Virus record (IMG/VR): IMGVR_UViG_3300029305_004519 | Location: 13,541-77,540 of that record | DNA length: 64,000 nucleotides | Source of the DNA: a virus | Direction: 5' to 3' (one strand) | Shown here: piece after piece, positions 1,631-63,754 of the stretch | Layout: every line of letters starts with the position of its first letter | How positions within the stretch are numbered: the stretch's first letter is position 1 | The notes under the pieces: generated by a model | What the model was told of the DNA's origin: nothing | Database searches by the model: none | The model's input: the letters and a program-made list of their open reading frames with translations, nothing else | Translations under genes and position numbers: made by a program

Positions 1631-1668
1631 TATAATATATTATAACATAATTTTAATAAAAAATCAAC
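1631..1668 (-). promoter_or_regulatory. Conserved phage promoter (middle/late class). Minus strand reads TTGATT-N17(TGt)-TATAAT.
   Basis: Reverse complement of 1631-1668 is TTGATTTTTTATTAAAATTATGTTATAATATATTATA: -35 TTGATT, 17-nt spacer, extended -10. The same ~35-nt motif recurs about 20 times in the window. Confidence 0.7.
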
Positions 1669-3755: not shown

Positions 3756-4124
3756 TTATAATTCATTTCTTTTCACCTGCTTTCCCCATGTGGGTGTAGT
3801 CGCAAGAGCATCGTAGTAATACTGATTACCCATTCCGCTATCTCCAAATCCGTATTCTCGGAAAGAAGCTAATTTCATATAAGAAATATAAAATCCAAGA
3901 GTAAAAGGTTTACCTTGTTTTTCTTTTGCATATCTTCGCTCCTTCCAAAAATATTCAAAATATGGGATATCAAGCTCTTCTAATATCCACATAAAAGTTT
4001 CTGGTCTATCAGGATCAAAATGCTTATTGATACAATCTTTGCAAATTTTAAAATAGTTGTTATGTTTGGTAGTTAAAAAACTTTTTTCTTCTTTTGTTTG
4101 ATGACAATTTTTACATTCTATCAC
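3756..4124 (-). CDS. Hypothetical Zn-finger protein
   Basis: CKNCH...CKDC motifs. 122 aa. Confidence 0.4.
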   Translation of the reverse strand: MIECKNCHQTKEEKSFLTTKHNNYFKICKDCINKHFDPDRPETFMWILEELDIPYFEYFWKERRYAKEKQGKPFTLGFYISYMKLASFREYGFGDSGMGNQYYYDALATTPTWGKQVKRNEL

Positions 4125-7971: not shown

Positions 7972-8324
7972 TTAACACCACCAACTATAATACAAGTCTT
8001 CCTCTTTTGTAGGAATTTTTATTACTCTATATGAATTAAATGTATCATCAATGATAATAGGATGGTTTTTATACATCGGGAGACCATTTTCATCATCATA
8101 GATTCCACAATCTATTCTTTCTTTTAAATTCTCAAAAGTCTTTTGAGTCATATATAAAGATACTCTTTTGCGATTATATGCATCACCCGTACATATATAA
8201 AAATCTAATTCTGCTTCGTAAAAGTTATTCATTTCTTTACCTCTTTTGATACTTTTATATGTATATTATAACATAAATTAAATGAAAAGTCAATAGAGGA
8301 TATCATCCTCTATTGACTAATTCA

Positions 8325-9378: not shown

Positions 9379-10344
9379 TTAAAATATAAAATTGCCTTCT
9401 TTTGCTTTAGGAGCGGCGGGCGCTGCTACAGGATTATTCTTCTGTGCCTTATACTCTTCACTTCTCTTCTTTTCCTCGGCAAGTTTAACCTGTCTATCCT
9501 GCATAGCTTTTGTAAGCTCTTCCCCAGTAAGAACACCCTCTTCACCAAAGTCATAAGGATTCTGTGAAGCTCTTACAACGAGCCACTCTTTAGTCTTGCG
9601 CTCAAAGGTTCTTACAGAGTCGCCGCCAAAAGCACTCTCTTCTTTGAGTTCAGTCTTTACAGTGTTGCAGTTGATAACGCCTTCAACCCAAGTATAAACA
9701 GGCTCACTACCAGACGCGCCAAGTCCTTCAAAGTAGTTCATACCGTTAGGATTCTTAACCGTGAAAGTAAGAGGAAGAAGTTCCTTGCGGAAATTAAACA
9801 CCGCACCACGAATAGCAACATGCTCGTCAATATTCTTCTCTTCGTCTGCATCAATATGAGTTACATTTGTAATAACCATATCACAACGGAAATAGGTTCT
9901 TTCTGCCTCATTCTCAGGAAGAGTGTTTACGATTGTTGCAAATCCCCCCTCGTGCATTACCTGAGATACGAGCTTATCTTCGCCATTCTCGTTGATATAG
10001 AAATCATTGAGCGCGAAAGAAGGCTCGAGCTTAACCATGGGCGCAGCGTCCTTGCCATCCTTGACCCAGGTCTTACCACCATCGATAAGCGCCTTAAGAG
10101 CAGTAAAGGTATTGTTAGTTCCACCGGCCTTAGTTGTAGGACTTACAAAGGTATAGTGAACGGGGATCACATTGAGACCTGCCTCGTCTACTGCAACTTG
10201 AATGGTTCCTGCGATAAATTCTTTACCGAAGTTATCAGACTTCTCATTTTTTACAGTCTTAACCTCAAGCATATTTCTGCCATTAGCTTCTCCAAAACTG
10301 TAAACTCTTCCTTGAATTGTAATTGAATTCTTTGTGTACTTCAT
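9379..10344 (-). CDS. Putative single-stranded DNA-binding protein
   Basis: Beta-rich OB-like repeats; Ala/Pro-rich tail ending ...GNFIF, resembling SSB C-terminal tips. Sits beside the Sak4-like ATPase. Confidence 0.35.
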   Translation of the reverse strand: MKYTKNSITIQGRVYSFGEANGRNMLEVKTVKNEKSDNFGKEFIAGTIQVAVDEAGLNVIPVHYTFVSPTTKAGGTNNTFTALKALIDGGKTWVKDGKDAAPMVKLEPSFALNDFYINENGEDKLVSQVMHEGGFATIVNTLPENEAERTYFRCDMVITNVTHIDADEEKNIDEHVAIRGAVFNFRKELLPLTFTVKNPNGMNYFEGLGASGSEPVYTWVEGVINCNTVKTELKEESAFGGDSVRTFERKTKEWLVVRASQNPYDFGEEGVLTGEELTKAMQDRQVKLAEEKKRSEEYKAQKNNPVAAPAAPKAKEGNFIF

Positions 10345-10582
10345 TTCTTTCTCCTTTTTAATTTAATTATTTTACTTATTTAATATTTTTGTCCAATACT
10401 TTTATTATTATAACAAAAATTTTTTATTTAGTCAAATAAAAGCTGCATTATATCATTAACTATTTCATAAGTCATTCGAGAACTTCCATCGTTATTGTAG
10501 CAAGTTATTCCTTTTGTTTTAAGATATTCTTCTAAAACAGGAAAAGGTATATAAGAAATTGCTAAAACTATAAATTCTTCCA

Positions 10583-10963
10583 TTACTCCTCTTTCGACCT
10601 CTTTTCAGGTATTACTACTGTTACGCTCATACCAAGCTCAGTAAGTGAATAACAAGTGGGAGTTCCTTCTGTCTTACTTACATAACCATCAGTAACAAGC
10701 TTTCTCATGGCGCCAGATACTGTGCGCGAAGAACAGAAGAGCCCATCACCAATTTCCTTTGCTTTAAGGATGTTGTTATAAGACTCATGATTCTCCTGCA
10801 TCCAAATAAGAACCTTAGCGCCATTTTCTGTGAAGGGAGCCTTCTCCTTTTCAGGCGTTGCTTTAAGTTGCTCAAAGTAGGCGCGGGCGCCCTCTGAAAG
10901 AATAGTGCAACTCTTGCAAACCATATCTTCAATTTCTTTAATAAATTGCTCTTTGTTTGTCAT
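10583..10963 (-). CDS. Putative winged-helix transcriptional regulator
   Basis: SSRTVSGAMRKLVTDGYVSK, an HTH-like segment. Confidence 0.4.
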   Translation of the reverse strand: MTNKEQFIKEIEDMVCKSCTILSEGARAYFEQLKATPEKEKAPFTENGAKVLIWMQENHESYNNILKAKEIGDGLFCSSRTVSGAMRKLVTDGYVSKTEGTPTCYSLTELGMSVTVVIPEKRSKEE

Positions 10964-11044
10964 TTAATTAATTTATCTCCATTTCTATTTATTTGTTCAT
11001 TTTATATAATAATTATAATTAATTTTATATAAAAAGTCAATAAA

Positions 11045-12362: not shown

Positions 12363-13556
12363 TTAGCTATTCCCGCGAGTTTTATTCAGGCCAAAATCAT
12401 ATGTTTGATAGAGGTCGATATAAAACTTCTCCTTTTCATTTAATTCATTGATACTACATTTTTCTAATACTTCAAAAGTAAAGTTATCAATACCTTTTTC
12501 TCTTGTGAATGCATAGAGTTGACTTGTTACAGGGGTGTCGATACCCAAGCTACATTTAACATGCGTTACCCAACGCTCTTTGATATCTTTAGCTTGTCCG
12601 ATGTATGATATGCCAGAGTCAATGTGGGTAATTTTATATATTCCACTTGCGCCCACCGCACCTACGCGCGCCGCAAGGTCATTGACTTTATCTCTATAGA
12701 ATGTAGACCATATAAGCATTCGCAAAGGTCTTGCCTCACGCAAATTATATTCAATGCTTTGAAGATATGCAACATCCCGTTTATCAGCTTCATTAATTTG
12801 AAGGGTATAAAATGTCGCTTGATTTTTAATTTCTTCTTCACGGAGTTGTGCCTCCATTGCGGCGGCCTTAGTTGCACGAATTTTTTCTAGCTCTTCACGA
12901 ATTGAATCTAAATCAGCGCGCATTGCCGCCTCTTCTTCTTGCAGCTCTTTAGACATTGATTGTTGCTTATCATAAAAGAGTTTTACAAGAATATCTAAAT
13001 CTTGACGCTGTTCTTCGATTAAACCATTTTCTCTAGCATCTAATTCTAACATTCTAGTGAAATAAAGCTCATCTAGCTTTGCGATGTCATTATTAAACTC
13101 CTGTTCTCGCTTTTGATATTCATAATCAAGAGTATCACAATATTGCTCAAATGAGGTGCGAGCAGCTGCCTTTAAACTACCTGACATCTCATCTATTGAG
13201 CGATTTAAAGTGGCGATTTGCGCCTCCACTCCTGCTTTTTCAATTTGCTTATTTTGAATTTCATTTATTAACAATAATTTCTATTGAGTTAATTGATTTA
13301 ATTCGTCATAAGAATTTTTTGTTTTTTTACAGTTCTCTTCATACTTTTGAGAAATTTCATTGTTAGATTTTATCAATAAGTCATTTTGAGCTTCTAGGCT
13401 TTTGCGAGTTGCATGTAATGACTAATTAAGCTCTTCCAGTTTCTAATTTTCTTCTGCTACATAGTGATTTGCTTTTATAGTTGTGGCTTTAGCCCATATT
13501 CCGTAAGCAAGGCCGCCTACGCCAAGAAGAATTGATATTACACATATGATTATCAT
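12363..13556 (-). CDS. GIY-YIG endonuclease with N-terminal TM/coiled-coil region and three in-frame TAG codons
   Basis: C-terminal GIYKITHIDSGISYIGQAKDIKERW (GIY-YIG). Reading up from the ORF-track start, the frame stays open through TAGs: MIIICVISILLGVGGLAYGIWAKATTIKANHYVAEEN[TAG]KLEELN[TAG]SLHATRKS...LNQLTQ[TAG]KLLLINEIQNK. Total 398 codons. Confidence 0.5.
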
Positions 13557-13569
13557 AATTACAATTTAA

Positions 13570-13605
13570 GGGGTAATTTATTCAATTACCCCTTATTTCC
13601 TTTAC
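13570..13605. terminator. Hairpin terminator-like element (9-bp perfect inverted repeat plus T-run)
   Basis: GGGGTAATTtattcAATTACCCC followed by TTATTTCCTTT. Confidence 0.4.
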
Positions 13606-13608
13606 TAA

Positions 13609-13860
13609 TTAGTCTTCTGTTGCAGTAGGATCATAGTCACGACCTGTATCAGTAAGGCGAATATATTTTACCTTACCGCCAGTGACTGCAACCTCTTCAC
13701 GCTCTAAAAGCTCGTGGTGTCTAGCCATAGCAGTGATGCATCCATTTACCGACTTTACAGGAATACCCGTTGCCTATGCAATATCTGCTGCAGTGAAATC
13801 TTCTCCGTCATGCTCTCTTACATAATTAAAAATTGTTAAACTGTTTTCTTTAAGTGCCAT
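13609..13860 (-). CDS. Small winged-HTH protein with one in-frame TAG
   Basis: MALKENSLTIFNYVREHDGEDFTAADIA[TAG]ATGIPVKSVNGCITAMARHHELLEREEVAVTGGKVKYIRLTDTGRDYDPTATED, then TAA. 84 codons. Confidence 0.5.
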
Positions 13861-14185
13861 TGCCTTAAATCTCCTTTTATTTCTTAATATTTAGCAGTAT
13901 TTATCTCTGCTATCGTAGTAATATAATTATATAATAAAATTTATTTATTGTCAAGAAGATTCTTATTATAGATATAGTCCTCAATAGCAAACATCTCAAT
14001 CATTGTGCAACTTTCAATGATGTTAGTCATTTCCTCTTCTGCTGCAGATTTATCAATGCCTGCTTTGATTTGCTTTTCAAGTTCTACAATGCGCTTGATT
14101 TTTGGCACAAGGCGCTTGTGCATTGCTTTGCGTTGCTCCCTATTCATAGGTGCATCTGCTTTTTCCGTTATGTTGTAATTTGCTT

Positions 14186-15019
14186 TCATTTCATTAACTC
14201 CAATAATTCTTCTTCAGTAATAATCGGAATGCCAAGTTCCTTTGCTTTAAGATTCTTTGATGATGTACTATCAATATCATTATTGACGAGATAATCAGTT
14301 TTTGAAGAGACCGATGATGTTACTTTACCACCTGCGGCGGTCACTGCTGCAGAAAGTTCATCTCGGTTTTTCCAGATGTGGACTCGACCTGTAACGCAAA
14401 AGGTTTTACCCTCAAGCGCATTTCCAGAATTTTCCAGCGCGCTTTCATTTGTTTTAAAGGTAATAATCCCCTTTTCTACAAGGCTATCTGCTTCCGTATA
14501 GTCAAAGCTTAAAATCGCATCTGCTTTCTCTGGTCCAATACCATCAAGCGACTCAAAATCAAAGCCATTCGCAACAGCATTTCTAAATTCTTCATAAGTT
14601 TCAAAAGTATTTGCAAGTTTCTGCGCATAGGTCTTACCTATAAGCGGAATGCTAATTGCGCTTAAATACTGTGCAAGAGTAGTCTCGCGTGCTTTCCATA
14701 TAGAGTCAATGAGCTTAGTTACGCTTTTAGGTCCGAAACCAGGCTTACTAGCCCAGAGATCAGCTACTTCACCGAGTGCGCAAATATCGCTTATAGAAGA
14801 TACCCAGCCCCAGTCGATAAGTTTCTCTAAAGTTGCTTTAGACAAGCCTTTAATATCAAGACCTTTCTTTGATACAAAATGTTCTAATTTGTTAATCAAT
14901 TTTCCACTGCAATCAGGATTATTACAAAATAATTCTTGTGTGCCGCTATCGCTCGTTTTGATAATTGTATTTCCGCCGCAAATAGGACAAGTCTTTGGTA
15001 TTTCAATCCATTCAATCAT
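14186..15019 (-). CDS. ligA: NAD-dependent DNA ligase, C-terminal half (Zn finger, HhH, BRCT)
   Basis: CPICGG...CNNPDC zinc finger, HhH region, then BRCT-like GKTFCVTGRV...ELGIPIITEEELLELMK. Own RBS and ATG. Confidence 0.8.
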   Translation of the reverse strand: MIEWIEIPKTCPICGGNTIIKTSDSGTQELFCNNPDCSGKLINKLEHFVSKKGLDIKGLSKATLEKLIDWGWVSSISDICALGEVADLWASKPGFGPKSVTKLIDSIWKARETTLAQYLSAISIPLIGKTYAQKLANTFETYEEFRNAVANGFDFESLDGIGPEKADAILSFDYTEADSLVEKGIITFKTNESALENSGNALEGKTFCVTGRVHIWKNRDELSAAVTAAGGKVTSSVSSKTDYLVNNDIDSTSSKNLKAKELGIPIITEEELLELMK

Positions 15020-15983
15020 ATTTTCTTTCCTTTTTTACAATAAATTTACTTTTATTAATATCTAAATCTTCTAAGGTTAATTGTTCAAGATGAGTATAAG
15101 GAATTCTAATTAATATAATATTATTATCCATACACCATTTATTCTTAAAAAGATCTCGAGCATTAGTTTTTTGAAATTGCTCTTCTGCGACTTTTTTAGA
15201 TATGCCTCCAAATTGTCGAGGAGTAAAATGCTGTTCCCCATCATATTCAATTAAATATTTATTTTCAACAAAAAAATCATAATATAAATGATAATTCGTA
15301 TCTGGGTAAACACAAGTATCAAAAGTTTTCTATTTTTCAAAAGTAATATTATTTTCTTTTAAAAGTTTTTCAATACAGTATTCTCCTTTTGATTTTCCTA
15401 AGCACCCACAAGAAGAAGTGTGACCTCGTCTAAGATTTAACGTTGAAACTTGGATTTTATTATGATCAGGACATGAGCATTCACATAGCCACATAATTCT
15501 ACCATTTGGATCACGTTCTTCCATTTTTTCTATAACTGTTAATTTACCAAAATGGGATCCAACAAGATTTAATGCTCTTTGTTCTCCCAATTTCTTCATG
15601 CGCTCTTTGGTAATACAACCACAAGATTTAGTACCTCCATTTTCTCCTTTTTTCAGCTAATCAGTTGGTACTTTAGTAATATTTCCACAATCACACTAAC
15701 ATTCCCATATCATACATCTTTTAGGGGTTTTTTCTCCAGTTGGACGTAAAGCCACTAATCGTCCGAATCTTTGCCCTGTTAAATCTTCAAATTTAGGTTC
15801 ATGTTTTTTACATCCACAAGAAGTTACTCGCTTTGCATTTAATTCTCCAGAAGTTACTTCTTTTTGATTTCCACACTAACATTGACAAAGCCAAACAACA
15901 GCTCCCCCTTTTCGTTTGTCTGTTTTTTCAATTACTGTTAAATAACCAAACTACTCTCCAATTAAATTTTTACAAGCTGGCAT
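15012..15983 (-). CDS. Homing endonuclease (Zn-ribbon repeats plus Vsr-like/DUF559 nuclease domain) with five in-frame TAG codons, inserted inside ligA
   Basis: RBS AAGGAGAAAAG and ATG at 15983. Frame open for 324 codons through TAGs at GE*FGY, QC*CGN, EC*CDC, TD*LKK and FEK*KTF. C-terminus has YDFFVENKYLIEYDGEQHF...ARDLFKNKW...ILIRIPY (DUF559/Vsr-like). Ends with TGA overlapping the ligA-C ATG. Confidence 0.5.
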
Positions 15984-17103
15984 CGTTTATCTTTTCTCCT
16001 TCTGCTACCTGCGGAATAATTTGATTAGCGAGGTAGACTTTAATTTTTTGTCCTTTATAAGGTCTACCTAATATTAAATTTAAAGTAGATAAATTATGCA
16101 AATTTGCCCTTGAAATTATATTTGAACCCGTATCTACATCTTTGTAAACTGCAACTGGAGTCAAGACACCAGTTCTACCCATAGACCATTCAATGTCTAA
16201 GAGTTCAGTCTCATATTCCTCGTCATAGAATTTATAAGCAAGACCGCCGCGAAAATGATGTTCTGTTCTACCTGCTGCTTGGTATTCTTTAATATTATCC
16301 CACTTAAAGACAATACCATCAATAGGATAGTCATTTAAAGAAGATAACCCTTTTATAGATGCTTCAATATATTTTTCAGTCTCACCTCCGCAAAATGGAA
16401 CACTAATAAAGCTTAAACTTTGCAAATGAGTAAGTTTGGCGCTTAAAGTAGTCATATCAATATAATTAAATCCTTGAATAATATCCCAAGCTACAAAAGT
16501 CAATTCTCTTTTAGCGCACTCATTACTATCCAAAAGTCGAATACTACCAGCTGCAAAGTTACGCGCATTAGCATGCTTGCCTTTGAATTGCTCAAAAGTA
16601 TCGAGATCGCAGATAACTTCTCCATCTACTACAAGTGTATCTTTATAAGGAATAATTTGTGGAATAGAGGGGAGCACTCGCGCATTATGGGTAATATCTT
16701 CGCCCTCAACGCCGTCTCCTCTTGTCTCGGCGCGAATTAGTCTACCTTCTTCATAAGTCAAACGACAAGTTAAACCGTCAAGCTTAAGCATTGCAATCCA
16801 TTCTTTATCACCGATAAAAGATTTAATTTCTTCAATATCTTTTGTCTTATCAAGTGAAAGCATAGGTTGATATTCATGCTTTACTTTTTTAAGCTCAGAT
16901 ACTACTTCATATCTAATCTTCTTAGTAGGTGAATTTTCAAATTCGATACTTGGAAACTCTTGTTCAAGAGCTTTAAGTTCCAAATAAGCTTCATCCCATT
17001 CTTTATCTGTTATCTTTGGAGTCCCAGCATCATATTGGTCTTGATGATAATTAAGATATTCAATTAATCTTCGCATTTTTTGCGCTACATCAAATTTCTC
17101 CAT
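15970..17103 (-). CDS. ligA: NAD-dependent DNA ligase, N-terminal half (adenylation plus OB domains)
   Basis: KxDG motif MLKLDGLTCRL and ...IIPQVAEG (OB end). Stops just before the Zn-finger region, which is encoded by 14186-15019. Confidence 0.8.
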   Translation of the reverse strand: MEKFDVAQKMRRLIEYLNYHQDQYDAGTPKITDKEWDEAYLELKALEQEFPSIEFENSPTKKIRYEVVSELKKVKHEYQPMLSLDKTKDIEEIKSFIGDKEWIAMLKLDGLTCRLTYEEGRLIRAETRGDGVEGEDITHNARVLPSIPQIIPYKDTLVVDGEVICDLDTFEQFKGKHANARNFAAGSIRLLDSNECAKRELTFVAWDIIQGFNYIDMTTLSAKLTHLQSLSFISVPFCGGETEKYIEASIKGLSSLNDYPIDGIVFKWDNIKEYQAAGRTEHHFRGGLAYKFYDEEYETELLDIEWSMGRTGVLTPVAVYKDVDTGSNIISRANLHNLSTLNLILGRPYKGQKIKVYLANQIIPQVAEGEKINDASL

Positions 17104-17123: not shown

Positions 17124-17165
17124 TTATAATATATTATAACATATTTTTAATAAAAAATCAAAAGA
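17124..17165 (-). promoter_or_regulatory. Conserved phage promoter (middle/late class) upstream of ligA-N
   Basis: Plus-strand ttataatatattataacatatttttaataaaaaatcaa; minus strand reads TTGATTTTTTATTAAAAATATGTTATAATATATTATAA. Confidence 0.65.
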
Positions 17166-21872: not shown

Positions 21873-21908
21873 ATATTATAATATATTTTTTCAAAAATTT
21901 CAACAAAA
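21873..21908 (-). promoter_or_regulatory. Conserved phage promoter upstream of the topoisomerase B gene
   Basis: Minus strand reads TTGAAATTTTTGAAAAAATATATTATAATATAGTATA (TTGAAA-N17-TATAAT). Confidence 0.55.
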
Positions 21909-22467: not shown

Positions 22468-22543
22468 GCTTTAAGTATGGCTGGGAGTGTGGGATTCGAA
22501 CCCACGCATAACCGGGTTAGAGCCGGAGGCCTTAGCCGCTTGG
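22468..22543 (-). tRNA. Amber suppressor tRNA, anticodon CUA, tRNA-Gln-like body (tRNA-Sup(CUA), predicted Gln)
   Basis: Hand-folded canonical 76-nt cloverleaf: AGGGAGT/ACTCCCA acceptor (A1·A72 mismatch, G2-C71, G3-C70), G73, encoded CCA, D-arm GCCA/AGGC, anticodon loop C-U-C-U-A-A-C (U33, C34 U35 A36), T-arm GTGGG-TTCGAAT-CCCAC. Shares TCGCCAAGCGG...CCCAGCCA features with the tRNA-Gln(UUG) at 42331-42408. Confidence 0.8.
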
Positions 22544-22602
22544 CGAACTCCCTATTGATTACATATAAATTATAATCAAAATTTTTGAAAAAATCAATTA
22601 TT

Positions 22603-25977: not shown

Positions 25978-26022
25978 CTTTATAATTTATTATATCATAT
26001 TTTTTTAATAAAATCAAAAAAG
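25978..26022 (-). promoter_or_regulatory. Conserved phage promoter (middle/late class)
   Basis: Plus-strand ctttataatttattatatcatatttttttaataaaatcaa. Confidence 0.6.
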
Positions 26023-26364: not shown

Positions 26365-27144
26365 TTACATAATATACCAAGTTGAAACCGTATTCTTTAT
26401 TAATTTAATAGTTGCAGCGGTTCCTTTTGTATATGTCACAGTTAAGTTTGTTAATTCTTCTCCATCTTGTAATGCAGCGGTAAATGAGGTGCCATTTAAA
26501 GTTATTGCACCACCCTCGGTAATAGCTAAGGCAGGATTGCTATTATTAGTAGTTTTCGTTTCAATTACTCCATCTTTAATAATAGTAACGGTAGTGAGAT
26601 TAGAGGAAGCTGTTGGAGGAGTATATGCTTCTCCTTCCATAGTAATGATACATAACTCTTTATTTTCATTTGGAAAAGCATCAAATGTAAATGTAAATAT
26701 TGAAGGATCTCCGGTTGGAGCCATAGAAAGATTTAAAGTTGTTTGTAATTTTGCTTCAGGAATAGTAATAGTTGCACTATGATCTACGCCTTCATCATCT
26801 CTAATTAAGGTTGTTGCATTTACCGTATAATAAGCTGCAAATGAAGTAGTTTTAATTTTAAAAATTGTCTATGATGAGCCAGACGTTACTTCTGCTCCAG
26901 TTAGAGCATGGAATGACTCCATTGTAAGCAATGCGTCTTCTACTGTAAAAGTAAGCGTTTTTTCACCTTCCCAAGCAATTAAACGAGAATTACCTTTACC
27001 TCCTTGAGCATATACTGTTGAGCTTGTTGATTCAATTGTACTCATTTTTGCAGTATCGATAACAAAAGAGCTGGGACCTTCTCCAGAACCAACTTTTTTA
27101 GTAAAAGTTAAATCACAAACTTCACGAATACCAAATCTATTCAT
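26365..27144 (-). CDS. Beta-rich structural-like protein with one in-frame TAG
   Basis: ORF-track fragments 26869-27144 and 26365-26724 are in the same frame and joined through a TAG at 26869-26871 (...EVTSGSS[TAG]TIFKIKTTSF...MAPTGDPSIF...). 260 codons. Confidence 0.5.
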
Positions 27145-27243
27145 AAAAATATTTCCTTTTCTTTCAAAATAAAAATATAAGCGGCAAGCTTCTATATTAT
27201 ATTGAAAATTAAGGAGATATAATTAATTACTTTTGACCAATTT

Positions 27244-28559: not shown

Positions 28560-29480
28560 TTATACCTCCAAACATTCTCTCAGCAATCCTGCGCGTAGCG
28601 GATTGCGCAGTTTGCGCAAGGCCTTTTCTTCAATCTGTCTAATGCGCTCTTTAGATAGCTTATATTCATTTCCAATTTCTTCCAAAGTCTGAGCTTTATG
28701 ATTATTCAAACCATAGCGACGTGTCAGCACATCTGCTTCTCTATTGTCAAGAGTTGATAATACTTGTTGAATACGCTTAGAGACTTCTTCTTTGAAAATG
28801 TCTTCAATTGGAGATTCATTATTTTCATCTGCTACTAAATCGCCAATAGTTGCATCATCTTCATCATTGATACTTTGATCAATAGAGATTGGGTCTTTAA
28901 CAATAGCTCGCAACTCTTTAATTTTCTTTTCTTCAAGTCCCATATGATTTGCAAGCTCTTGTGTGGTAGGTTCTCTATTCAGTACTTGACAGAGTTCATT
29001 AGTGGCACGACTCAGTTTACTAAGTTGCTCAATAACATGCATAGGTACTCGAATGGCTCGCGATTGCTCAACGACAACTTTAGAGATACTTTGTTTAATC
29101 CACCATGTAGCGTAGGTAGAAAATTTATAACCTAAAGTATAATCCCACTTATCTACGGCGCGCATTAATCCAATATTTCCCTCTTGAATTAAATCAAGAA
29201 ATGGCATATTGGTACGATGTAAATATTTTTTTGCAATACTTACTACCAAACGCAAATTTGCTTCAATCAGTTTATTCCTTGCTTCAATACTTCCATTTGC
29301 AATTTGGGCGCCTAAAGCTTGCTCTTCTTCGTAGGAGAGCAAAGGAATTTTACTAATTGAGTTCATATATGCTTTTGTTGCGTCTGGTAAAAAACCCATA
29401 TTATCAAAATCTACATCAATACTATTTTCTTCCTCAAGAATCAAATCTTCCGCTTCTAAAATCATTACATTATTTTCCAT
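28560..29480 (-). CDS. Sigma-70 family RNA polymerase sigma factor (regions 1.2, 2, 3 and 4 all present)
   Basis: ...[14 protein letters not shown]...[19 protein letters not shown]...[10 protein letters not shown] (region 2) ... [28 protein letters not shown] (region 4.2 HTH). Confidence 0.8.
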
Positions 29481-30076
29481 TATGCTTTACTCTTTTCTTT
29501 AATATATTTTTATTTAGTATAATATTATAACATAATTTTTTTAGAAAATCAATTATCTGCTCCTTGAAACTCTTGCATACTTATAGGGGGGATAATGGCG
29601 CCAAAACGCGACCATGAGCCAAAGTCAACAAATGTGGCATTAGATGCCATAAGATATCGCCAATACCCGCCATGATTACTGGTTACATCAGCAAGTAATT
29701 TACACGCTTCTTGAATCGAATTAGCATCGCCTATAAACAATTCATTTTCAAGCACCTCAATAGAGTCGGTTAAAAATACCTTATAGCGACCATGGGCGCC
29801 GAACAACTCAGCATCTTTAAATCTTTCACACACTTCTTGATCGGTTGCTTTACATGTATAAATACAATGATTACAGGTTTTCATTTTTATTTTCTCCCTC
29901 TTGATTATTAATTTGAGCTTTTAATTTTTCACATTCTTCTACTATTGATTCCATTTCATTTAAAATATTTACAAGTGATGTAAATTCATTCGCAAGATTT
30001 ACAAAACCAATATTAGAATAATAATTAGCTTTTTCAATGGATTTATTTTTTAATTCAAGTATTTTTTCTTTCACAG

Positions 30077-39594: not shown

Positions 39595-40009
39595 CGTTGT
39601 CCATCTCCTTTGTTAACTCAATATAAGTGCCTTTAACCCCTTGGTTTTTAACTTGCGCAATACCAAATTTTTCCATTTTCGCCAACAATGAAGTCCAAAC
39701 AGGGCGCGATAGGTTTGTTTTTTGAATCATTTTTACAATTGAAAGATTACCAGATAGCCCAATTGTTTCTCTAATTGCTATAAAAGCATTTTTTTCATTA
39801 ACAGTTAATGATTTGTAAAAATCTTCTACTAAAACAAGCTGATCGGCGCCAATCACTGCTTCTAAAAAATTCATAAGGCGCCCAATATCACCATCTAATC
39901 TAAACTCACGAATATCTTCCTCGTAGTCATGAGCTATTGAGAGTAATTTTTCGTAACTAATCATTTCTTTACACATCCTTTTATTTATTCTATTAAAATT
40001 ATAAGACAT
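39578..40009 (-). CDS. Hypothetical protein
   Basis: 143-aa ORF. Confidence 0.35.
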   Translation of the reverse strand: MSYNFNRINKRMCKEMISYEKLLSIAHDYEEDIREFRLDGDIGRLMNFLEAVIGADQLVLVEDFYKSLTVNEKNAFIAIRETIGLSGNLSIVKMIQKTNLSRPVWTSLLAKMEKFGIAQVKNQGVKGTYIELTKEMDNDDLPT

Positions 40010-40121
40010 ATTTTTGAAAATTTCAATTAAAAATATCTAAAACCAACTTTGATTTTCAAAATACGAGCCTTTGCGCCCCGCGCAGACCAAAAAGAAAAAG
40101 CCACTCAAAAGAGTGACTAAA

Positions 40122-40443: not shown

Positions 40444-41228
40444 GCATATTAAGTTTTCAATAATCGCATAAGAAAATATATAATCACTTTAACGAGCCTT
40501 CACTCTACATCGTTTCTGAAGTGCGTTATTAACATATGTTCACGGGAGGCTGAGCAATGGGTAGCGATCCCACGCTTCTCCAATGGTTCTCTCTATCTTG
40601 CCCCGATAGGAAAGCAAGTAAATTAAACTACCACACCCTCGATCAATACTAAGGGAACTTTCACCGAGCTTCAGCATTAATTCTAAAATACCTGTTTTCA
40701 TCAAATTTGAAGCTATCTTTTATGCCCGATACGGCTACTCGCACCAGCCAAATCTGTTATAGTTTGTTACCAAACATCAACGGGAACGCTTATTTTTGAG
40801 ATACCTAGTTGATTATTCGCTTCATAACGGTTTCTCACGCCGCCAACTTTAGGTGGTATGCATCACTGCAGGGACTCTTCTCGCGCCAGATTCCTGACTG
40901 TTGTTTACGCTAAATCATCAATATGCACCATTATCCGCAACCTTTGTCAGGCATACTCGTTTATTCAGTATATTCACGAGTTTTATTTACTTTAGAGCAG
41001 TATCCCACTCTGTTTCTTTCCCCGCGGATCTGTCCTAGCCATCATGCAAGATGTCTGCACTAGGATGTTAAAGGTTTATATATTTTCTTATGCAATTATC
41101 AATGAACTTTTTTCTTTTGATTACTTAATCATTATATCATAAATTTTTTAAGTTTTCAAGAGAGAGGTGAGGCTTTAGGTCAGCCGACCGCACATCTGTT
41201 GATTGCTGGAACTTTTGCTCTTCCAAAA

Positions 41229-42498: not shown

Positions 42499-42545
42499 TA
42501 TCTTACATATATATTATATCATAAATTTTTTATTTTTTCAACGAA
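42499..42545 (-). promoter_or_regulatory. Conserved phage promoter (middle/late class) driving the tRNA sub-cluster
   Basis: Plus-strand atatatattatatcataaattttttattttttcaa. Confidence 0.55.
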
Positions 42546-42828: not shown

Positions 42829-42868
42829 ATATATTTTATCATAAATTTTTAATAAAATCAATGATAAA
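42829..42868 (-). promoter_or_regulatory. Conserved phage promoter (middle/late class)
   Basis: Plus-strand atatattttatcataaatttttaataaaatcaa. Confidence 0.55.
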
Positions 42869-43270: not shown

Positions 43271-43980
43271 ATGTGGTTCCATAAGGTCGGAAACCTCGCC
43301 GCACATTTTTCACCTACTAGCAGGGTCGCCATTTGCTCAATGCGATTATAAGAGCTTTTAAGCGCTTTCACGCGGAGGCTCTTACTTTATATTCCAGCTT
43401 TTGGATGCGGGAAGCTGGACCCGCGCCATTCATAGGGTTCGCGGATAAACCATCACCTACTACTAAGCCACATCATAACTTGCCCACTTCATCTTGGAGG
43501 AGCGACTCCAGCGGATATTTGGCCCACCGCTGCCTGTGTCTTGAGACTCAACACTATTACCTGTGTTTTTATATAGCGTTTTCAGCTTCGCTTTCTACTC
43601 GCTCTGTTGATAGGGGGAGGATCGAAGGGACTCCTCCCAGAGGTCATTATAGAAAAGAACCGTAGCGGAAATCTATTGGCGGTTCAATTTGTCTGCTTTA
43701 TCCGCAATTGAGAGGGAAACGGACTAAATGCTCTCGCAGGGGTTAAGGTACCCTGTTTTTGTAAGACATTACTCGAGTTATTCTTACCACAACTTCCGAC
43801 TTTACCTAATAGGCTGGTTTTCGCATTATCCATTTACCACAGTTTTCCTCCATTCATACTTGACTTCCGGCTTCGTGGCACCTATTATCTTTCCCGTTGC
43901 TCACGGATACGGGACCCCGGACGCTCTGCGTATTACCGCACAGGTTAGTCTCCTGACCAATGATTAGGCATTGGCACCTC

Positions 43981-44146
43981 TGGTGGAATGGGTAGGAGTT
44001 GAACCTACTTTGTCGCGACACACCGTGGCTTTACCGATTGCTTACCACCCCATAAATTGTGAGCGTTTATGCTTGGTAGCTCACTCCACTTCTGACCACT
44101 GGTCTTACACTCCCAGAGCGTGAAGATTTCAATACGGTTCTTCAAC
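43981..44146 (-). ncRNA. tRNA-like 3' domain (T-arm, G3·U70 acceptor, ACCA) without D and anticodon arms. Could be a tmRNA-like or other structured RNA.
   Basis: Minus strand ends ...GTAGG-TTCAACT-CCTAC-CCATTCC-A-CCA. Candidate 5' partner strands GGGGTGG (about 40 nt upstream) or GGAATGG (about 160 nt upstream). The interior has a perfect palindrome, GTGTCGCGACAC, not an anticodon arm. Confidence 0.3.
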
Positions 44147-44287
44147 CATTCCGCAGTATGCCGTTGGCTAACGATGACATACGATTCGTATCAGACTGTA
44201 GTACTCCAGCTTTTCACCTACGGCGTCTGATAATCGCCTTTTGTTAGTTTAGGGTTAATGCCGCGACGAACTAACAAAACTCGGCAT

Positions 44288-44363
44288 TGGCGACTCTGAG
44301 GCATTCCGACAGCCCGACCTTCGCAGTGACAGTGCGATGCTCTACCCCCTGAGCTACAGAGCC
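44288..44363 (-). tRNA. tRNA-Asp(GUC)
   Basis: Acceptor GGCTCTG/CAGAGTC, G73, D-arm GCTC-AGGGGGTA-GAGC, anticodon stem TCGCA/TGCGA with loop CUGUCAC. T-arm is irregular. Confidence 0.5.
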
Positions 44364-44524: not shown

Positions 44525-44570
44525 CTTTTGTATATATATTATAACAAAATTTTTATTAAAAATCAATTAA
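44525..44570 (-). promoter_or_regulatory. Conserved phage promoter (middle/late class)
   Basis: Plus-strand atatatattataacaaaatttttattaaaaatcaa. Confidence 0.55.
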
Positions 44571-46056: not shown

Positions 46057-46455
46057 ATAATGCACAGATTCTCGTACTGTGCGCAGTCCCATATGGCGCC
46101 TTGAAAAGACTGCACGAGGAATGTTTATACAGGCACATTCACTCAAACCTAACCTAGACTTCTCAATAAGGTCACACTGTGTGCTTTCTCTACTACGGCG
46201 GTTCGCACGCTTTAATGTCTCGCACAAAAGACAGCTGGCAGAGAGCGCAGGTCCCGACCCTGAGCGGATAACCGCCACATCCCTTAGCAGGGGAGTGCCG
46301 CGCCTTGCGACTTCACTCTCTATAATGTGTGTTCCACTTGCGTTTTCTCTTCTTCATCGGTTTACACACAACCTACCACTTGAAGCGCCACTAATTTATA
46401 TACCGAGTCTGGCTTTCGTCGGTGAATTACACTAATTGTGTTACTTTGCGCTGGT

Positions 46456-46613
46456 GCTACCCCCGGGACTCGAACCCGGACGCCTCTAACGAGACACTGG
46501 ATTTTTGGTGCCTGAAATGAGATTTGAACTCATAATCTGAAGCTAGGTCGCCCCAGAGTTTTCCGTTTGAGCTTATTCAAGCAAGTCCAGGGCGTCTGCC
46601 ATTCCGCCACGGT
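46456..46613 (-). ncRNA. Composite tRNA-like element: a class II tRNA interrupted in its anticodon loop by an ~85-nt insert that itself ends in a tRNA-like T-arm, acceptor and CCA
   Basis: 5' half GCTACCG..CTGGA-CUUGC..., then ...GAGTTCAAATCTCATTTCAGGCACCA, then AAAATCCAG plus variable arm GTCTC-GTTA-GAGGC, then CCGGG-TTCGAGT-CCCGG-GGGTAGC-A-CCA. Confidence 0.35.
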
Positions 46614-46626
46614 AGCATAATGCGTC

Positions 46627-46986: not shown

Positions 46987-47080
46987 TTTTATTTCCTCTT
47001 TCCTTTTGATTACATATATATTTTATCATATTTTTTAATAAAAATCAATAAAGTATATGCAATTTAAAGTTATTGATAAA

Positions 47081-48195: not shown

Positions 48196-48268
48196 CCGTT
48201 GCCATCATATTTAAAAATTATGAGCTCTACCATCTGAGCTAAGGTCCCAGAATCGGAGTATTATAATC
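48196..48268 (-). tRNA. tRNA-Lys(UUU), no encoded CCA
   Basis: Acceptor GGGACCT/AAGTCCC, D-arm GCTC-AGATGGTA-GAGC, anticodon stem CATAA/ATATG with loop UUUUUAA, T-arm AACGG-TTCGAGT-CCGTT. Confidence 0.6.
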
Positions 48269-48578
48269 GCCCTCCGAGGCGCGTTGATCAACTGCCAATT
48301 CCGCTCGTTACACCGCTGAGTCTCTGGCATCTCTCACCGCGTTCAATCTGTTTGGTTTTTTAACTCTCTACGAACAGAGACTCTGAGTGATTGAAACCTC
48401 TTTTGTCTGAAACGGAAAGTTTCTCCAAACTTACAAGGATAAGTTTCAATATCGGCTAAAACTTATAAAGAACGCCCTTCACTAGGGTAGTACAGCCTTG
48501 GGCTCATGAACCCTTAGCCGCATTCCAAGTAGTTGGTGCCCCGGCTGGCAACCTATGGGGACTACGGCTCCCATAATT

Positions 48579-48818
48579 TTACTCTACGATATAGTCAGAA
48601 AAATCAACCCAGTCTCCAAGAGAAGTGATGACTTCACCGCCAAACTTATCTTCATCTGCATGAAGATAAAGAGAATCAATATCCAACACTCCGCCGCAAC
48701 AACTCCAAATAACCTTATCTTCAAAAGCAATTCCTACAAAGAATTGAGGTTCTCCGTCTTCCATGCAGTCATATGCGCGAACTCTTGTAGGTTCGTCAAA
48801 CCAATATACATTTTCCAT
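48579..48818 (-). CDS. Hypothetical small acidic protein
   Basis: 79-aa ORF with RBS. Confidence 0.4.
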   Translation of the reverse strand: MENVYWFDEPTRVRAYDCMEDGEPQFFVGIAFEDKVIWSCCGGVLDIDSLYLHADEDKFGGEVITSLGDWVDFSDYIVE

Positions 48819-48879
48819 TTTTCTTTCTCCTCTCTTTATCTTACAAATATATTATATCATATTTTTTTATAAAAATCAA

Positions 48880-49251: not shown

Positions 49252-49452
49252 AAGTTCCTACAAAGATAAAACGACTTCTGAGGAACTGCAATTCGCTTGC
49301 TTGACGAATTACAGTGATATGTTTTACATTATCATCGTCGATATACCAAACAGCTTTAATTACAGTTTTCATAAGTGTCTCTCCTTTGCTTTTTCAATTT
49401 TCTTTTGTAATTTATTATAACATAAATTTTTTAAGAAATCAATTTACGAATA

Positions 49453-49671: not shown

Positions 49672-49785
49672 ACTTTTGCCTCTCTTTCATTTTATACTTT
49701 ATTTTATCATATTTTTTTATAAAAATCAATGAGGCGCACAAGCTTCACTATAAGTTTTCTTATGGTGCAGATTGAAGTATTTGGC

Positions 49786-52124: not shown

Positions 52125-52194
52125 TTTTATTCCCTCTCTTTCTTTTAACATATATATTTTATCATATTTTTTTGATAAAATCAAAAGAGAAATA

Positions 52195-53221: not shown

Positions 53222-53286
53222 AATTTATTCTCCTTTTGTTTTATAATTTATTATAACATATTTTTTTAAAAAATGCAATAAAGTTA

Positions 53287-54093
53287 TTAATGTTTAATAA
53301 CCAAATGATTTTGACGCAATAAATTGCTAATATTTAATGCCGATTCACAAATACCACATCGTTCACCTTTCATGCAACGCTTGCCGCAATATTTTCGCGC
53401 TTCTGCAAAAGCTGGTAATACTCTGGTAGAGTCAAAGTTACAATCAAAATCCAAAATAATTGTGTCTAAACTACTTTTCCAAGCCTTCTTTATAGCATAG
53501 ATTCTATATAGTACCGCCTGCCTATCTTCTGGCCCCCAGAATTCAATAGTGTCAATCACATCTTGATAAGTGTCAATATCTTCGGGGCGAATAAAGAACT
53601 TTTTAATTGGCGCCGTAGCTTTGACACTTGATTGAGCAATATTCGGAAAAGCGCGAATTTGTACATTATGCGCACTACAGATACGCTTTGCGCGCACTAG
53701 GTCAAAGCAAATATCTTCGACCAAATATACTTGAGCTACTCCAAGGCTTAATGTATATTGTAATTGTTCAAAATTAGAAATAAAACTTCCTAAAAAGAAA
53801 GGTACTTTTATTTCCTTAATGCATTCTAACAACACATTATCAACTTCAAAAAACTTTTGGCGCTCACCAAAGCGAACTGTAAAGTTAGGATATGTTTCAT
53901 AAATTGCATTCAATTTATGCCACTCTTGAGTGGTATGAAAAGTCGGAATATCTTTCACTGATAAAACAATATGTTGATTAGAATGTAGTTGTAAAAATTC
54001 AATTAATTCTTCATTCTAATTCTCATATTGAATAATAACTTCATCAAATGGAATTAAATCAATTTTATTTGAAAATACTGCTGAATATCTCAT
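53287..54093 (-). CDS. Hypothetical protein with C-terminal Cys cluster and one in-frame TAG
   Basis: AGGAGG RBS and ATG at 54093: MRYSAVFSNKIDLIPFDEVIIQYEN[TAG]NEELIEFLQLHSNQHIVLSVKDIPTFHTT... in frame with ORF-track 53287-53958. 269 codons. Ends CGKRCMKGERCGIC... Confidence 0.5.
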
Positions 54094-54160
54094 TTAATCC
54101 TCCTTAATAAGAAAAGAGGCGACGTAACCCCGCCGCCTCTTTTCCGAACATGATTTTTAA

Positions 54161-54544
54161 TTATTCTGCATCTACGGGAAGAGTCCAAGCAGTCTTGGTC
54201 TTACCCTCTTCAGTCTTTACCTTGGTCTTGGAAGCTTGACCAGCCTCTACAAGATTATTCAACTTAGCCTGAATCTTAGCCACAGTCAACTCGCCATCCT
54301 CGTTCTCAAAGTGAGCAAGAATATCTTCGCGAGTCTGAGGAGTCTCGCTCAAAGTGCTCAAAACAGCAGCCTGAAGCTCATCTCCGATAGCACGCTTTGC
54401 AGCTGCGCGCTCTCTTGCCTTTACATTCTTCTTCTCCAGAAGAGCCTTCTCATTTTCGCAGTAAGCAACGATAGTCTCGTTATCTGCGCATGCCTCGATG
54501 ATCATATCGAGAACCATTGCCTTGGTGATCTTAGTGTTTTCCAT
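54161..54544 (-). CDS. Hypothetical protein, member of a three-paralog family (with 61386-61808 and 62425-62808)
   Basis: The N-terminal ~40 aa and overall layout are shared by the three proteins. Confidence 0.4.
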   Translation of the reverse strand: MENTKITKAMVLDMIIEACADNETIVAYCENEKALLEKKNVKARERAAAKRAIGDELQAAVLSTLSETPQTREDILAHFENEDGELTVAKIQAKLNNLVEAGQASKTKVKTEEGKTKTAWTLPVDAE

Positions 54545-54747
54545 TTTTTGTTTCTCCTTAAAATATATTTATTTTTTATTTGGTGTTATTATTATACCAA
54601 AAATTTTTTAATTTTTCAACTAAAGGCGGCCGCGCCTGCAAGTAACTTTTATTACTTGTATAAGATTTCTTTTTTCCTTATCTTACATTTATATTATATC
54701 AAAAAATTTTAGAATTTTCAAGTGAGCAGATTAGATCTCCTTTATAG

Positions 54748-55473: not shown

Positions 55474-55580
55474 AGGAAATACCTCTTTATCATCTTTTTT
55501 CTATATATATTATATCATAAAAATATAAAAAAATCAATAAAAACAGAGCGGCGCAAAGCGTCGCTCTGAGAATTCCTATA

Positions 55581-55898: not shown

Positions 55899-56147
55899 GG
55901 TAGGCGCCTACACATTCTTCAGCGCAATATTCCATCTCCTCTTGGCTAGAAATGTCTACATTGTGACACATATATTCATCTATTACTCCATTCAAAAAAG
56001 AATTTCCAACGGTTACCTTAATTACTCCCATAGCTTTTATCCTTTCTTACTTTCTTTATTTTACATATATATTTTATCATATATTTTTCAAAAAATCAAT
56101 CAAATGACTTAAAAGTGGCACAAAGCGATGGTTGCGCGCCTTAGTTG

Positions 56148-56190
56148 ACTACTTTTTAAAAATATATTATAATATAAGTAACTAAAGATA
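56148..56190 (+). promoter_or_regulatory. Plus-strand sigma-70-type promoter (TTGACT-N17-TATAAT) at the start of the plus-strand gene block
   Basis: ttagTTGACTactttttaaaaatatatTATAATataag, followed by an RBS AAAAGGAGAAAAA and an ATG at 56208. Confidence 0.55.
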
Positions 56191-58840: not shown

Positions 58841-59028
58841 TGATACTTGAAAAGGTGGAATTGTAATAAAGTATAATAAAGTGCGGGTGTGTGGTGGCAC
58901 CTAATCCAAACCCACTTCACTACACCCTCGTCTCCGTTATCCTTATGGAGATTAATATCTCTTATTTGATTTATAATAAAATATATGATATAATATATAT
59001 AGAAAATGGAAAGGAGAATATAAATAAT

Positions 59029-59672: not shown

Positions 59673-60189
59673 ATTTCCAAATTTTGGAAGGGCGCATCGT
59701 ACACTATCCCCGAGTCATGGCTTCCCTTCATTTCTATTATAATTATATCATAATTTTCACTAAAAATCCACTTATTCTCTTGACTCTAGGCGCATAATAT
59801 CATTTTTTCGTTTCTGGGATCAAATTTTAGCACTATTGAAAGAACAAAAACAAGTAAAATCTGTTAAAACTATGCGTTTTTGATTAAGAATTCACAGTTT
59901 ATGCGGAAAAATGAATAAAAATGCTAATTATAGGAAAAAATAATGGAAATCAAACAACCAAAAACCGCGGCGCATATATGCGAAGGTCTAGCCTAGCGCG
60001 GAAGACGGGGGCTTCCCGATGGTCAGCGGCCCGCGCAGAAGTTGGGTATTGCGGGAAAATAGGTGAAGATTGAAACATTCAGATTTCGAATCGCATATGT
60101 GTGAAGAGATAGCTGGAGTGTGGAAACGGCAGGCGACGAACGCCGCCGTGCCGAAATTATGAACAGATTGTGAACACGTTTGGCGCAGA

Positions 60190-61308: not shown

Positions 61309-61309
61309 T

Positions 61310-61342
61310 TATATTATACCACATTGTGCGCTAAATGTCAAG
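61310..61342 (-). promoter_or_regulatory. Early-class promoter. Minus strand reads TTGACA-N17(TGg)-TATAAT.
   Basis: Reverse complement is CCTCTTGACATTTAGCGCACAATGTGGTATAATATAAG, a sigma-70 consensus, flanked by the AT-rich aaaaatttttcaaaaaattttt. Confidence 0.65.
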
Positions 61343-61865: not shown

Positions 61866-61899
61866 TTATATTATACCACATTTCGTGGGTTTTGTCAAG
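61866..61899 (-). promoter_or_regulatory. Early-class promoter (TTGACA-N17-TATAAT on the minus strand)
   Basis: Plus-strand cttatattataccacatttcgtgggttttgtcaagg. Confidence 0.65.
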
Positions 61900-61995: not shown

Positions 61996-62030
61996 TAATA
62001 TTATACCATAAAAATAAAAATTTGTCAATA
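61996..62030 (-). promoter_or_regulatory. Early-class promoter
   Basis: Plus-strand taatattataccataaaaataaaaatttgtcaatagg. Confidence 0.55.
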
Positions 62031-62878: not shown

Positions 62879-62913
62879 CTTATATTATACCGCACTTTTG
62901 TGGATTTGTCAAT
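62879..62913 (-). promoter_or_regulatory. Early-class promoter
   Basis: Plus-strand cttatattataccgcacttttgtggatttgtcaatagg. Confidence 0.65.
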
Positions 62914-63718: not shown

Positions 63719-63754
63719 CTTATATTATACCACATTTCTGCGGTTTTGTCAAGA
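63719..63754 (-). promoter_or_regulatory. Early-class promoter upstream of the exonuclease gene
   Basis: Plus-strand cttatattataccacatttctgcggttttgtcaagagg. Confidence 0.65.

Follow-up and report, generated by a model that had tools for sequence, protein, structure and literature searches.

The 64,000-nucleotide stretch analyzed here, which we call the window (positions 13,541 to 77,540 of the IMG/VR virus record IMGVR_UViG_3300029305_004519), encodes a short SigA-like sigma factor together with about 33 copies of a ~45-nt promoter, TTGATT-TTTtatAAAAaaTATGa-TATAAT-ATATAT (class A), and a separate block of TTGACA-type promoters (class B). The two promoter classes differ by location, and the pairing of sigma and class A is common to a deep clade of large phages (contigs of 100 to 400 kb), an association that is correlative only. 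From these patterns in the DNA we tentatively favor the reading that the phage sigma drives or boosts class A as a middle class, with class B being served early by the host SigA. The classes are read here as temporal, and we infer both the timing and the choice of holoenzyme for each of them.

The source appears to be a large uncultured phage of gut or rumen Firmicutes with a genome of ~135 kb, probably infecting Clostridia and distantly related to SPbeta. The assignment to a Firmicute phage follows from the matches of its DnaB-type helicase, all of them in phages of Gram-positive bacteria and nearly always of Firmicutes (36 to 38% identity to YorI from the SPbeta-like phages that infect Bacillus, Enterococcus, and Staphylococcus), and from the nearest bacterial relatives of its sigma, found in Clostridia metagenome-assembled genomes from gut, caecum, and rumen (45 to 51% identity). 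JGI metagenome contigs, the longest of 135 kb, encode an identical sigma protein. A megablast of positions 27 to 31 kb against INPHARED gave no match, and the only contig found to extend the left edge of the window was 2 kb long. Genes lie on the minus strand nearly throughout 1 to 56 kb and 60 to 64 kb, with a plus-strand gene block at 56 to 59.6 kb. The gene products include RecJ, a DnaB-type helicase, GyrA, GyrB, a split NAD-dependent ligase, an RNA ligase, NAPRTase, RNase H, a vault-shoulder-like protein, and an SPFH/flotillin-like protein. ARAGORN reported 25 tRNAs; an extra one, matched by Rfam and unreported by ARAGORN, lies at 44291-44363 (minus strand).

The initial annotation, made from the sequence alone, had described the sigma as a sigma-70-family protein with regions 1.2 through 4.2, and this was borne out. 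The Pfam domains Sigma70_r1_2 (residues 33 to 63), r2 (71 to 134), r3 (151 to 226), and r4 (240 to 293) all exceeded their gathering scores, and the family model TIGR02937 scored 119.9 against a cut-off of 42.9. The highest-ranking NCBIfam models were those of RpoD/SigA; their equivalog cut-offs were not reached (NF004208, 346 versus 555; NF006666, 323.9 versus 572; TIGR02393, 312 versus 354), nor was that of the proteobacterial group 2 sigma RpoS (TIGR02394, 290.8 versus 378.7). The best match among solved structures was Clostridioides difficile SigA (7l7b_F, E = 8e-82), with Bacillus subtilis SigA (7ckq) also among the best, and the alignments start at residues 103 and 98, respectively, of these chains, at or shortly ahead of region 1.2. 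Region 1.1, which belongs to group 1 primary sigmas, is absent from the phage protein, where 32 acidic residues stand ahead of region 1.2. An upstream N-terminal extension is not possible because only 43 nt separate the ATG from the promoter. Sigmas of the phage clade measure 272 to 306 residues, none with region 1.1. The bacterial SigA open reading frames (ORFs) compared measure 337 to 536 residues with one exception; their N-termini before region 1.2 are ~20 to 110 residues longer, and in some cases longer still.

The window sigma is ~47% identical to SigA and closest to that of Firmicutes. In E. coli numbering, it keeps the residues that contact the -10 element (Y430, W433, W434, and Q437), the TG (H455 and E458), and the -35 element (E585, R588, and Q589), so that the base contacts of regions 2.4, 3.0, and 4.2 are those specifying TTGACA, TGn, and TATAAT. 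Its differences from SigA comprise the conservative changes T440S, R441K, R436K, and R584K and several positions in region 1.2. The sole base-contact substitution is R584K, which replaces an arginine in contact with the base pair at -31. Between the clade and bacteria, the substitutions include T440S, T459Q/L, N461S, E508D, G512N, S517A/T, F522L, F580Y, V582L, and H600N, together with R584K, which is found in 31 of 36 clade sigmas, the bacteria having arginine in 40 of 40. The clade-specific changes T440S, N461S, F522L, V582L, and R584K sit in DNA- and initiation-contact regions. We considered R584K as the determinant of TTGATT and rejected it, since phages with arginine at 584 (L004, L005, L232, and L175) have an identical -35 hexamer.

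A search for class A with the pattern TTGATTTNNNNNNAAAANNNTGNTATAAT, allowing up to 3 mismatches, gave 26 matches versus 0.25 expected. Furthermore, a 49-nt position weight matrix (PWM; at least 15 bits, with strand de-duplication) found 31 minus-strand and 2 plus-strand sites, most of them above 35 bits, and none in 30 Markov-2 simulated windows used as the null. Both plus-strand sites lie within the plus-strand gene block, and one of the minus-strand matches (62000..62028) is a TTGACA hybrid within the early block described below. The regular expression TTGA-N17-TAnAAT matched 40 times on the minus strand and 7 times on the plus strand. Only the extended motif made an informative scan: a generic sigma-70 consensus returned 77 matches versus 63 expected, a signal not separable from noise. 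A PWM with 20-nt flanks was dropped, as it caught reverse-strand A/T shadows.

Class A is built on TTGA at -35 and a 17-bp spacing, with a T-tract from -31 to -26, an A-tract from -23 to -20 (26 to 31 of 32 sites), and TATAAT followed by ATATAT; its -10 part reads TaTGaTATAAT with an A/T-only discriminator. It also contains the TRTG "-16 region" that marks extended -10 promoters of Firmicute SigA, with T at -17 in 32/32 sites, A or G at -16 in 25/32, T at -15 in 30/32, and G at -14 in 26/32. Copies lie in intergenic gaps, typically 28 to 48 nt before an ORF start, or upstream of tRNA or noncoding RNA genes. Among the minus-strand gaps of at least 60 nt in 1 to 56 kb, 24 of 53 carry a copy, and the gaps without one are mostly between co-transcribed tRNAs. 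Several sites adjoin terminator hairpins. The initial annotation had counted about 20 copies of a non-host-consensus promoter tied to gene starts, including those of the tRNA island. The conserved extended motif and its tie to gene starts stand, and nine positions in the island carry it, but the count was too low and "non-host" was overstated, since the SigA architecture is kept.

At 61.3 to 63.8 kb, a second promoter type, TTGACA-N17-T(G)TGGTATAAT-ATAAG, occurs in 5 copies versus 0 expected. This class B, whose -10 part reads TgTGgTATAAT, is confined to an ORFan block at 61 to 64 kb, where no protein gave an informative family match, and upstream A/T tracts of the aaaaatttttcaaaaacct type, resembling UP elements, precede all copies; an early TTGACA-N17 class with UP-like tracts, as first annotated, is thus present. 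The A+T fraction from -59 to -40 is 0.76 in the early block versus 0.63 for class A. Contig L091, recognized by an exonuclease-like protein that it has in common with the window, adds 10 kb to it, and the block runs on there for more than 10 kb past the window edge, with 12 further TTGAC[AT]-N17-TATAAT promoters before tiny ORFan genes, nearly all of them with TRTG and G+C-containing spacers. The total is 17 TTGAC[AT]-N17-TATAAT promoters over ~13 kb. With classes assigned by location only, C at -31 was found in 17/18 early-block promoters versus 4/28 elsewhere (Fisher p = 5e-8), and spacer G+C was ~6 versus ~1 (p = 2.5e-5). The two classes differing by location, as had been proposed, are therefore real, and the block is a typical early or host-takeover block.

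The early promoters also fall into sub-families (61300-63760, minus strand, and L091 1-13000). One has an upstream AAAAnTTTGTGCAAnnTnACCTA, and another has the near-palindrome CC(G/A)CA-N4-TG(T/C)GG within its spacer, which could be an operator. The G+C content of the block (0.39 to 0.47) is higher than in most of the window outside the tRNA island (~0.35 to 0.42).

The genes behind class A in the window include gyrB/gyrA, the ligase, the helicase operon, the vault-shoulder-like and SPFH genes, the anticodon-CUA tRNA, the ROOL RNA, and the sigma gene itself. Elsewhere in the clade, the identifiable ones are Pol III alpha-like, GyrB-like, ligases, a Ro-like RNA-binding protein, peptidases, vault-like, and sigma. 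Neither in the window nor among 31 ORFs of at least 300 residues downstream of copies elsewhere in the clade, a sample biased to motif-dense regions, did a structural gene turn up behind class A. The suggestion that class A also serves late genes is consequently not upheld: every identifiable gene behind it belongs to DNA or RNA metabolism or is otherwise nonstructural. The yomU-like gene has no class A copy; its upstream region (27145-27243, minus strand) carries a different element, AAGGTCAAAAnnAA, conserved in four relatives and single-copy in the window, which may be another kind of promoter or regulatory site. A late-promoter class built on this element was dropped, as a single copy in the window leaves a class undefinable. 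The window yielded no third repeated motif.

The sigma and class A are conserved together well beyond the window. Relatives with sigmas 63 to 82% identical, all from ENA, Logan, and JGI contigs, are syntenic, and their orthologous sites also carry class A. Ahead of the sigma gene and gyrB, these relatives keep the promoter block unchanged, next to a distal flank that no longer aligns. IMG/VR holds no close sigma relative, the best being 50% identical. Three IMG/VR phages found via the sigma alone (L004 to L006; 44 to 50% sigma identity, contigs of 156 to 194 kb) have few further proteins in common with the window, most of them ~30% identical, and carry 8 to 16 copies per 20 kb of the same 45-nt consensus, including the spacer and the downstream ATATATGTAAGA. 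Class A at 25 bits or more had no matches in 77 other sigma-bearing viral loci, and 80 bacterial sigA loci (510 kb) gave one at that threshold (28.6 bits) and 9 at 15 bits or more. Class A is missing from the human-fecal record MT835471, which encodes a sigma with 46% identity.

An exact-pattern scan of IMG/VR returned at least 120 motif loci, with contigs mostly of 100 to 200 kb and up to 402 kb among the matches listed. Across the listed loci (946 kb), the motif occurs 407 times and a sigma gene 9 times, a sigma density of ~1 per 105 kb, or roughly one in each genome. In a neighbor-joining tree, the sigmas of motif-bearing phages and of the window family form one clade apart from 40 bacterial SigA proteins (27/30 bootstraps), and the phage sigma branches outside the sampled bacterial SigA sequences. 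We found no description of the class A motif or of the clade in the literature searched.

If the phage sigma does read class A, as we tentatively favor, the small ORFan "host-takeover" genes of class B would be transcribed at injection by the unmodified host SigA holoenzyme. The sigma would first be produced at a low level by the host holoenzyme from its own class A-type promoter and would load onto the host core RNA polymerase. It would then, by positive feed-forward, take over or boost transcription from class A and shift polymerase away from host and early promoters. The class A genes for replication, nucleotide metabolism, tRNAs, the ROOL RNA, and the sigma itself would form the middle class. 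The loss of region 1.1 and the clade substitutions are candidates for discrimination between the classes or for resistance to a putative host SigA inhibitor.

It is important to consider the evidence that weighs against the phage sigma as the reader of class A, a suggestion already present in the initial annotation, which clade co-occurrence supports and the following observations temper. Class A retains every canonical SigA element (TTGA, 17-bp spacer, TRTG, and TATAAT), and this near-consensus sequence, together with the canonical sigma contacts, means that class A should be legible to host SigA as well. The sigma gene itself is preceded by a promoter of class A type (TTGATT, or TTGACT in relatives); class A is therefore not strictly dependent on the phage sigma, and at least that copy must be served by the host holoenzyme. 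The contact residues kept in the sigma give no evident switch in specificity, and residue 584 (lysine in the window family, arginine elsewhere) does not covary with the -35 hexamer. Furthermore, co-occurrence in one phage clade possibly reflects shared ancestry alone, and Firmicute host RNA polymerase and SigA are highly conserved, so that deep conservation of the motif would be expected with a host reader as well.

A more far-reaching version, which we consider unlikely, is that in a deep clade of large Firmicute phages from gut and rumen, a private SigA-like sigma lacking region 1.1 and a ~45-nt promoter evolved together as a channel effectively orthogonal to host SigA on the host core polymerase. 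The hexamers would be shared with the host, and the T-tract/A-tract spacer, T at -31/-30, and the A/T discriminator would be read via non-canonical contacts of the clade-specific changes in regions 1.2, 3.0, 3.2, and 4.2.

The alternative that survives best, somewhat doubtful in our judgment, is that the host SigA holoenzyme reads all promoters of the window. Class A would then be the lineage's optimized strong promoter, class B a separate family of duplicated early promoter cassettes, and the sigma an addition to vegetative capacity without changed specificity, useful, for example, in slow-growing, stationary, or sporulating hosts. The same TTGA, 17-bp spacing, TRTG, and TATAAT of class A speak for it, as do the canonical contacts in the sigma, the lack of covariation at residue 584, and the class A promoter of the sigma gene itself. 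The strong host-read promoters of T5, SPO1, and phi29 also share conserved A/T-rich flanks. Clostridia already hold duplicate SigA genes for different growth phases, and extended -10 promoters are very common in them (245 transcription start sites in C. difficile; PMC7438776). However, a host reader alone leaves unexplained why early promoters have TTGACA, G+C-containing spacers, and UP tracts and class A avoids C at -31, and why the T-tract/A-tract spacer is kept across phages with ~30% identical proteins, with nothing comparable in 510 kb of bacterial DNA.

It is quite unlikely, in our view, that the sigma serves promoters outside the window (late or structural) or reprograms host genes, with class A unrelated to it. 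The 31 clade ORFs without a structural gene among them and the yomU-like gene, with its other conserved upstream element in place of class A, fit such a role, but the contact residues of the sigma predict TTGnnn-N17-TGnTATAAT, which is class A, and the window holds no third repeated motif that could be assigned to it. Very unlikely is a timing signal in the non-hexamer parts of class A (T-tract at -31 to -26, A-tract at -23 to -20, and ATATAT) for another factor, be it a phage activator or repressor or supercoiling set by the phage gyrase: spacer positions are as conserved as the hexamers, GyrA and GyrB are phage-encoded, and a phage winged-helix protein is itself behind a class A copy, but no candidate factor was identified, the spacer is only loosely symmetric, and the distribution of the motif tracks the sigma, though any clade-specific protein would match it.

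Table 1. The sigma gene and the predicted promoters of the window, with the scan that found each class A site.
Feature	Position	Strand	Variant and context	Scan
Phage sigma factor, 306 aa	28560..29480	-	Regions 1.2-4.2, no region 1.1, acidic 32-aa N-terminus before region 1.2	
Class A-type	29524..29552	-	TTGATT-ttctaaaaaaattatgt-TATAAT, directly upstream of sigma gene	Pattern + PWM
Class A	1639..1667	-	Upstream of ORF 1185-1604	Pattern + PWM
Class A	8265..8293	-	TTGACT; upstream of ORF 7972-8232 and DnaB operon	Pattern + PWM
Class A	10407..10435	-	TTGACT; upstream of ORF 9379-10344	Pattern + PWM
Class A	11012..11040	-	TTGACT; upstream of winged-helix protein 10583-10963	PWM
Class A	17133..17161	-	Upstream of NAD-ligase adenylation/OB part (15970-17103)	Pattern + PWM
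Class A	21875..21903	-	TTGAAA; upstream of gyrB/gyrA, conserved in relatives	Pattern + PWM
Class A	22569..22597	-	Upstream of anticodon-CUA tRNA	Pattern + PWM
Class A	25989..26017	-	Adjoining terminator hairpin	Pattern + PWM
Class A	30645..30673	-	Adjoining terminator; upstream of HNH ORF 30077-30607	Pattern + PWM
Class A	33255..33283	-	Upstream of vault-shoulder-like protein gene	Pattern + PWM
Class A	35287..35315	-	TTGTTT; adjoining terminator	Pattern + PWM
Class A	37408..37436	-	TTTATT; overlaps terminator tail	Pattern + PWM
Class A	39058..39086	-	Upstream of SPFH/flotillin-like gene	Pattern + PWM
Class A	39998..40026	-	TTGAAA	PWM
Class A	41131..41159	-	TTGAAA; 43 nt upstream of ROOL RNA	PWM
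Class A	42513..42541	-	TTGAAA; tRNA island	PWM
Class A	42833..42861	-	tRNA island	Pattern + PWM
Class A	44538..44566	-	tRNA island	Pattern + PWM
Class A	47020..47048	-	tRNA island	Pattern + PWM
Class A	48851..48879	-	tRNA island	Pattern + PWM
Class A	49414..49442	-		Pattern + PWM
Class A	49701..49729	-		Pattern + PWM
Class A	52156..52184	-		Pattern + PWM
Class A	53250..53278	-	TTGCAT	Pattern + PWM
Class A	54591..54619	-	TTGAAA; weaker	PWM
Class A	54693..54721	-	TTGAAA	PWM
Class A	55509..55537	-		Pattern + PWM
Class A	56071..56099	-	Left arm of divergent promoter region	Pattern + PWM
Class A-like	56145..56173	+	TTGACT; for plus-strand gene block	Pattern + PWM
Class A	58966..58994	+		Pattern + PWM
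Class A-like	59742..59770	-	TGGATT; before short ORF-free hairpin-plus-terminator stretch	Pattern + PWM
Class B (early)	61313..61341	-	TTGACA-N17-TGTGGTATAAT with upstream A/T tracts	
Class B (early)	61870..61898	-		
Hybrid	62000..62028	-	TTGACA with A/T-only spacer, in early block	PWM + class B scan
Class B (early)	62884..62912	-		
Class B (early)	63724..63752	-	Block running on past window	

Several other features of the window lie beside these promoters. Downstream of the class A-like site at 59742-59770 (59640-59770, minus strand), ~100 nt without an ORF contain a hairpin (gaaggg...cccttc) and a terminator-like stem and may be a small RNA; the adjacent ~600 nt (59650-60280) have no convincing ORF. 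A full-length ROOL RNA (RF03087, 175 bits, model positions 1 to 574) lies within the tRNA island at 40474-41088 (minus strand), and this copy has a clearly defined promoter, the class A site 43 nt upstream (41131-41159). RNAs of this family are known from prophages and from the neighborhood of tRNAs (PMC5737381). An 855-aa protein with a major-vault-protein shoulder domain (30716-33283) and a 512-aa SPFH/flotillin-like protein (37476-39014), both on the minus strand and behind class A, are conserved in relatives.

The anticodon-CUA tRNA, an amber suppressor (22478-22553, minus strand), is preceded by a class A promoter of its own. Of the 66 ORFs, 5 end in TAG, the least used stop codon, which occurs in frame within several minus-strand genes. 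The yomU-like gene (26365-27144) has one such TAG, and its read-through product of 259 residues aligns over the full length with the 258- to 276-residue proteins of relatives, which suggests amber read-through or recoding. Repeated Cys motifs of an endonuclease-like ORF (15012-15983) contain 5 in-frame TAGs, a GIY-YIG protein (12363-13556) has 3 in its N-terminal coiled coil, and RecJ (1973-3766) gains an N-terminal extension (...IExVLTNRGI...) if TAG is decoded; as predicted proteins, these three would make sense only with TAG decoded. The NAD-dependent DNA ligase is split into an adenylation and OB part (15970-17103, minus strand) and a HhH and BRCT part (14186-15019, minus strand), and a mobile element insertion is suggested because the TAG-containing endonuclease-like ORF sits between the two halves. 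Large stretches without standard-code ORFs or Rfam matches (13275-13940, 43271-44290, 46057-46626, 48249-48850, and 53959-54590) fall both inside and outside the tRNA island; TAG decoding may account for some of them and RNAs of new kinds for others.

The 45-nt motif and the short sigma make a practical marker for a large uncultured clade (100- to 400-kb contigs), which also carries the ROOL RNA, tRNA islands, and the amber-suppressor tRNA, and the motif offers ready operon boundaries for annotating its phages. If the sigma reads class A, a temporal switch would have been built from a near-copy of the housekeeping sigma and not from a diverged one. The classes would then be discriminated by spacer and flank sequence and not by hexamers, bearing on how non-hexamer promoter elements set sigma selectivity and possibly providing compact orthogonal promoter/sigma pairs for Firmicutes.

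Among known systems, the sigma cascade of SPO1 is similar in having an early block of strong SigA promoters before small host-takeover genes and a phage sigma for the next class. In SPO1, gp28 serves the middle genes and gp33/34 the late ones, the phage sigma binding the host core polymerase. The SPO1 sigmas are highly diverged, and their promoters are unlike the host consensus. In contrast, the window sigma is ~47% identical to SigA with canonical contacts, and class A keeps TTGA-N17-TGnTATAAT; as TTGAtt-N17-TATAAT with TRTG, it is not a promoter of the gp28 type. The early promoters of T5, phi29, and SPO1 are near-identical consensus promoters with a conserved A/T-rich spacer or flank, read by the host primary sigma only. 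Class A resembles them in its many near-identical copies, consensus hexamers, and A/T-rich spacer and flanks but differs in co-occurring with a private monophyletic sigma clade. The AsiA/MotA middle promoters of T4 likewise combine a good extended -10 with an altered upstream element in a middle gene class; however, class A has a -35-like TTGA at 17-bp spacing and not a MotA box at -30. Sigma appropriation, the second possibility raised by the initial annotation, finds no support in this canonical spacing, and no AsiA- or MotA-like protein appeared among the 9 early-block and 3 sigma-neighboring ORFs scanned, which are part of the genome. C. difficile SigA1 and SigA2 offer a parallel as second SigA-like sigmas for a different physiological state, but the phage sigma, without region 1.1, falls outside the sampled bacterial SigA in the tree.

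RpoD-like sigma factors have also been reported in jumbo phages by a survey of group 2 jumbo phages, T4-like and with gp23-type capsids, and the part of it available to us describes no cognate promoter set for them (Iyer et al. 2021, PMC7824862). The window phage differs from these in being distantly SPbeta-like, sharing with SPbeta-like phages the YorI helicase (36 to 38%), a YomU-like protein, and a genome of ~135 kb. The late genes of SPbeta are reported to be transcribed by the single-chain polymerase YonO (PMC5467207). RpoD-like jumbo-phage sigmas are already known, and textbooks describe phage sigma cascades (SPO1 and T4) as well as the stereotyped strong promoters of phages (T5). The present system differs from all of them in that the sigma is near the primary type, the putative promoter class has canonical hexamers, and the pair marks a deep uncultured clade.

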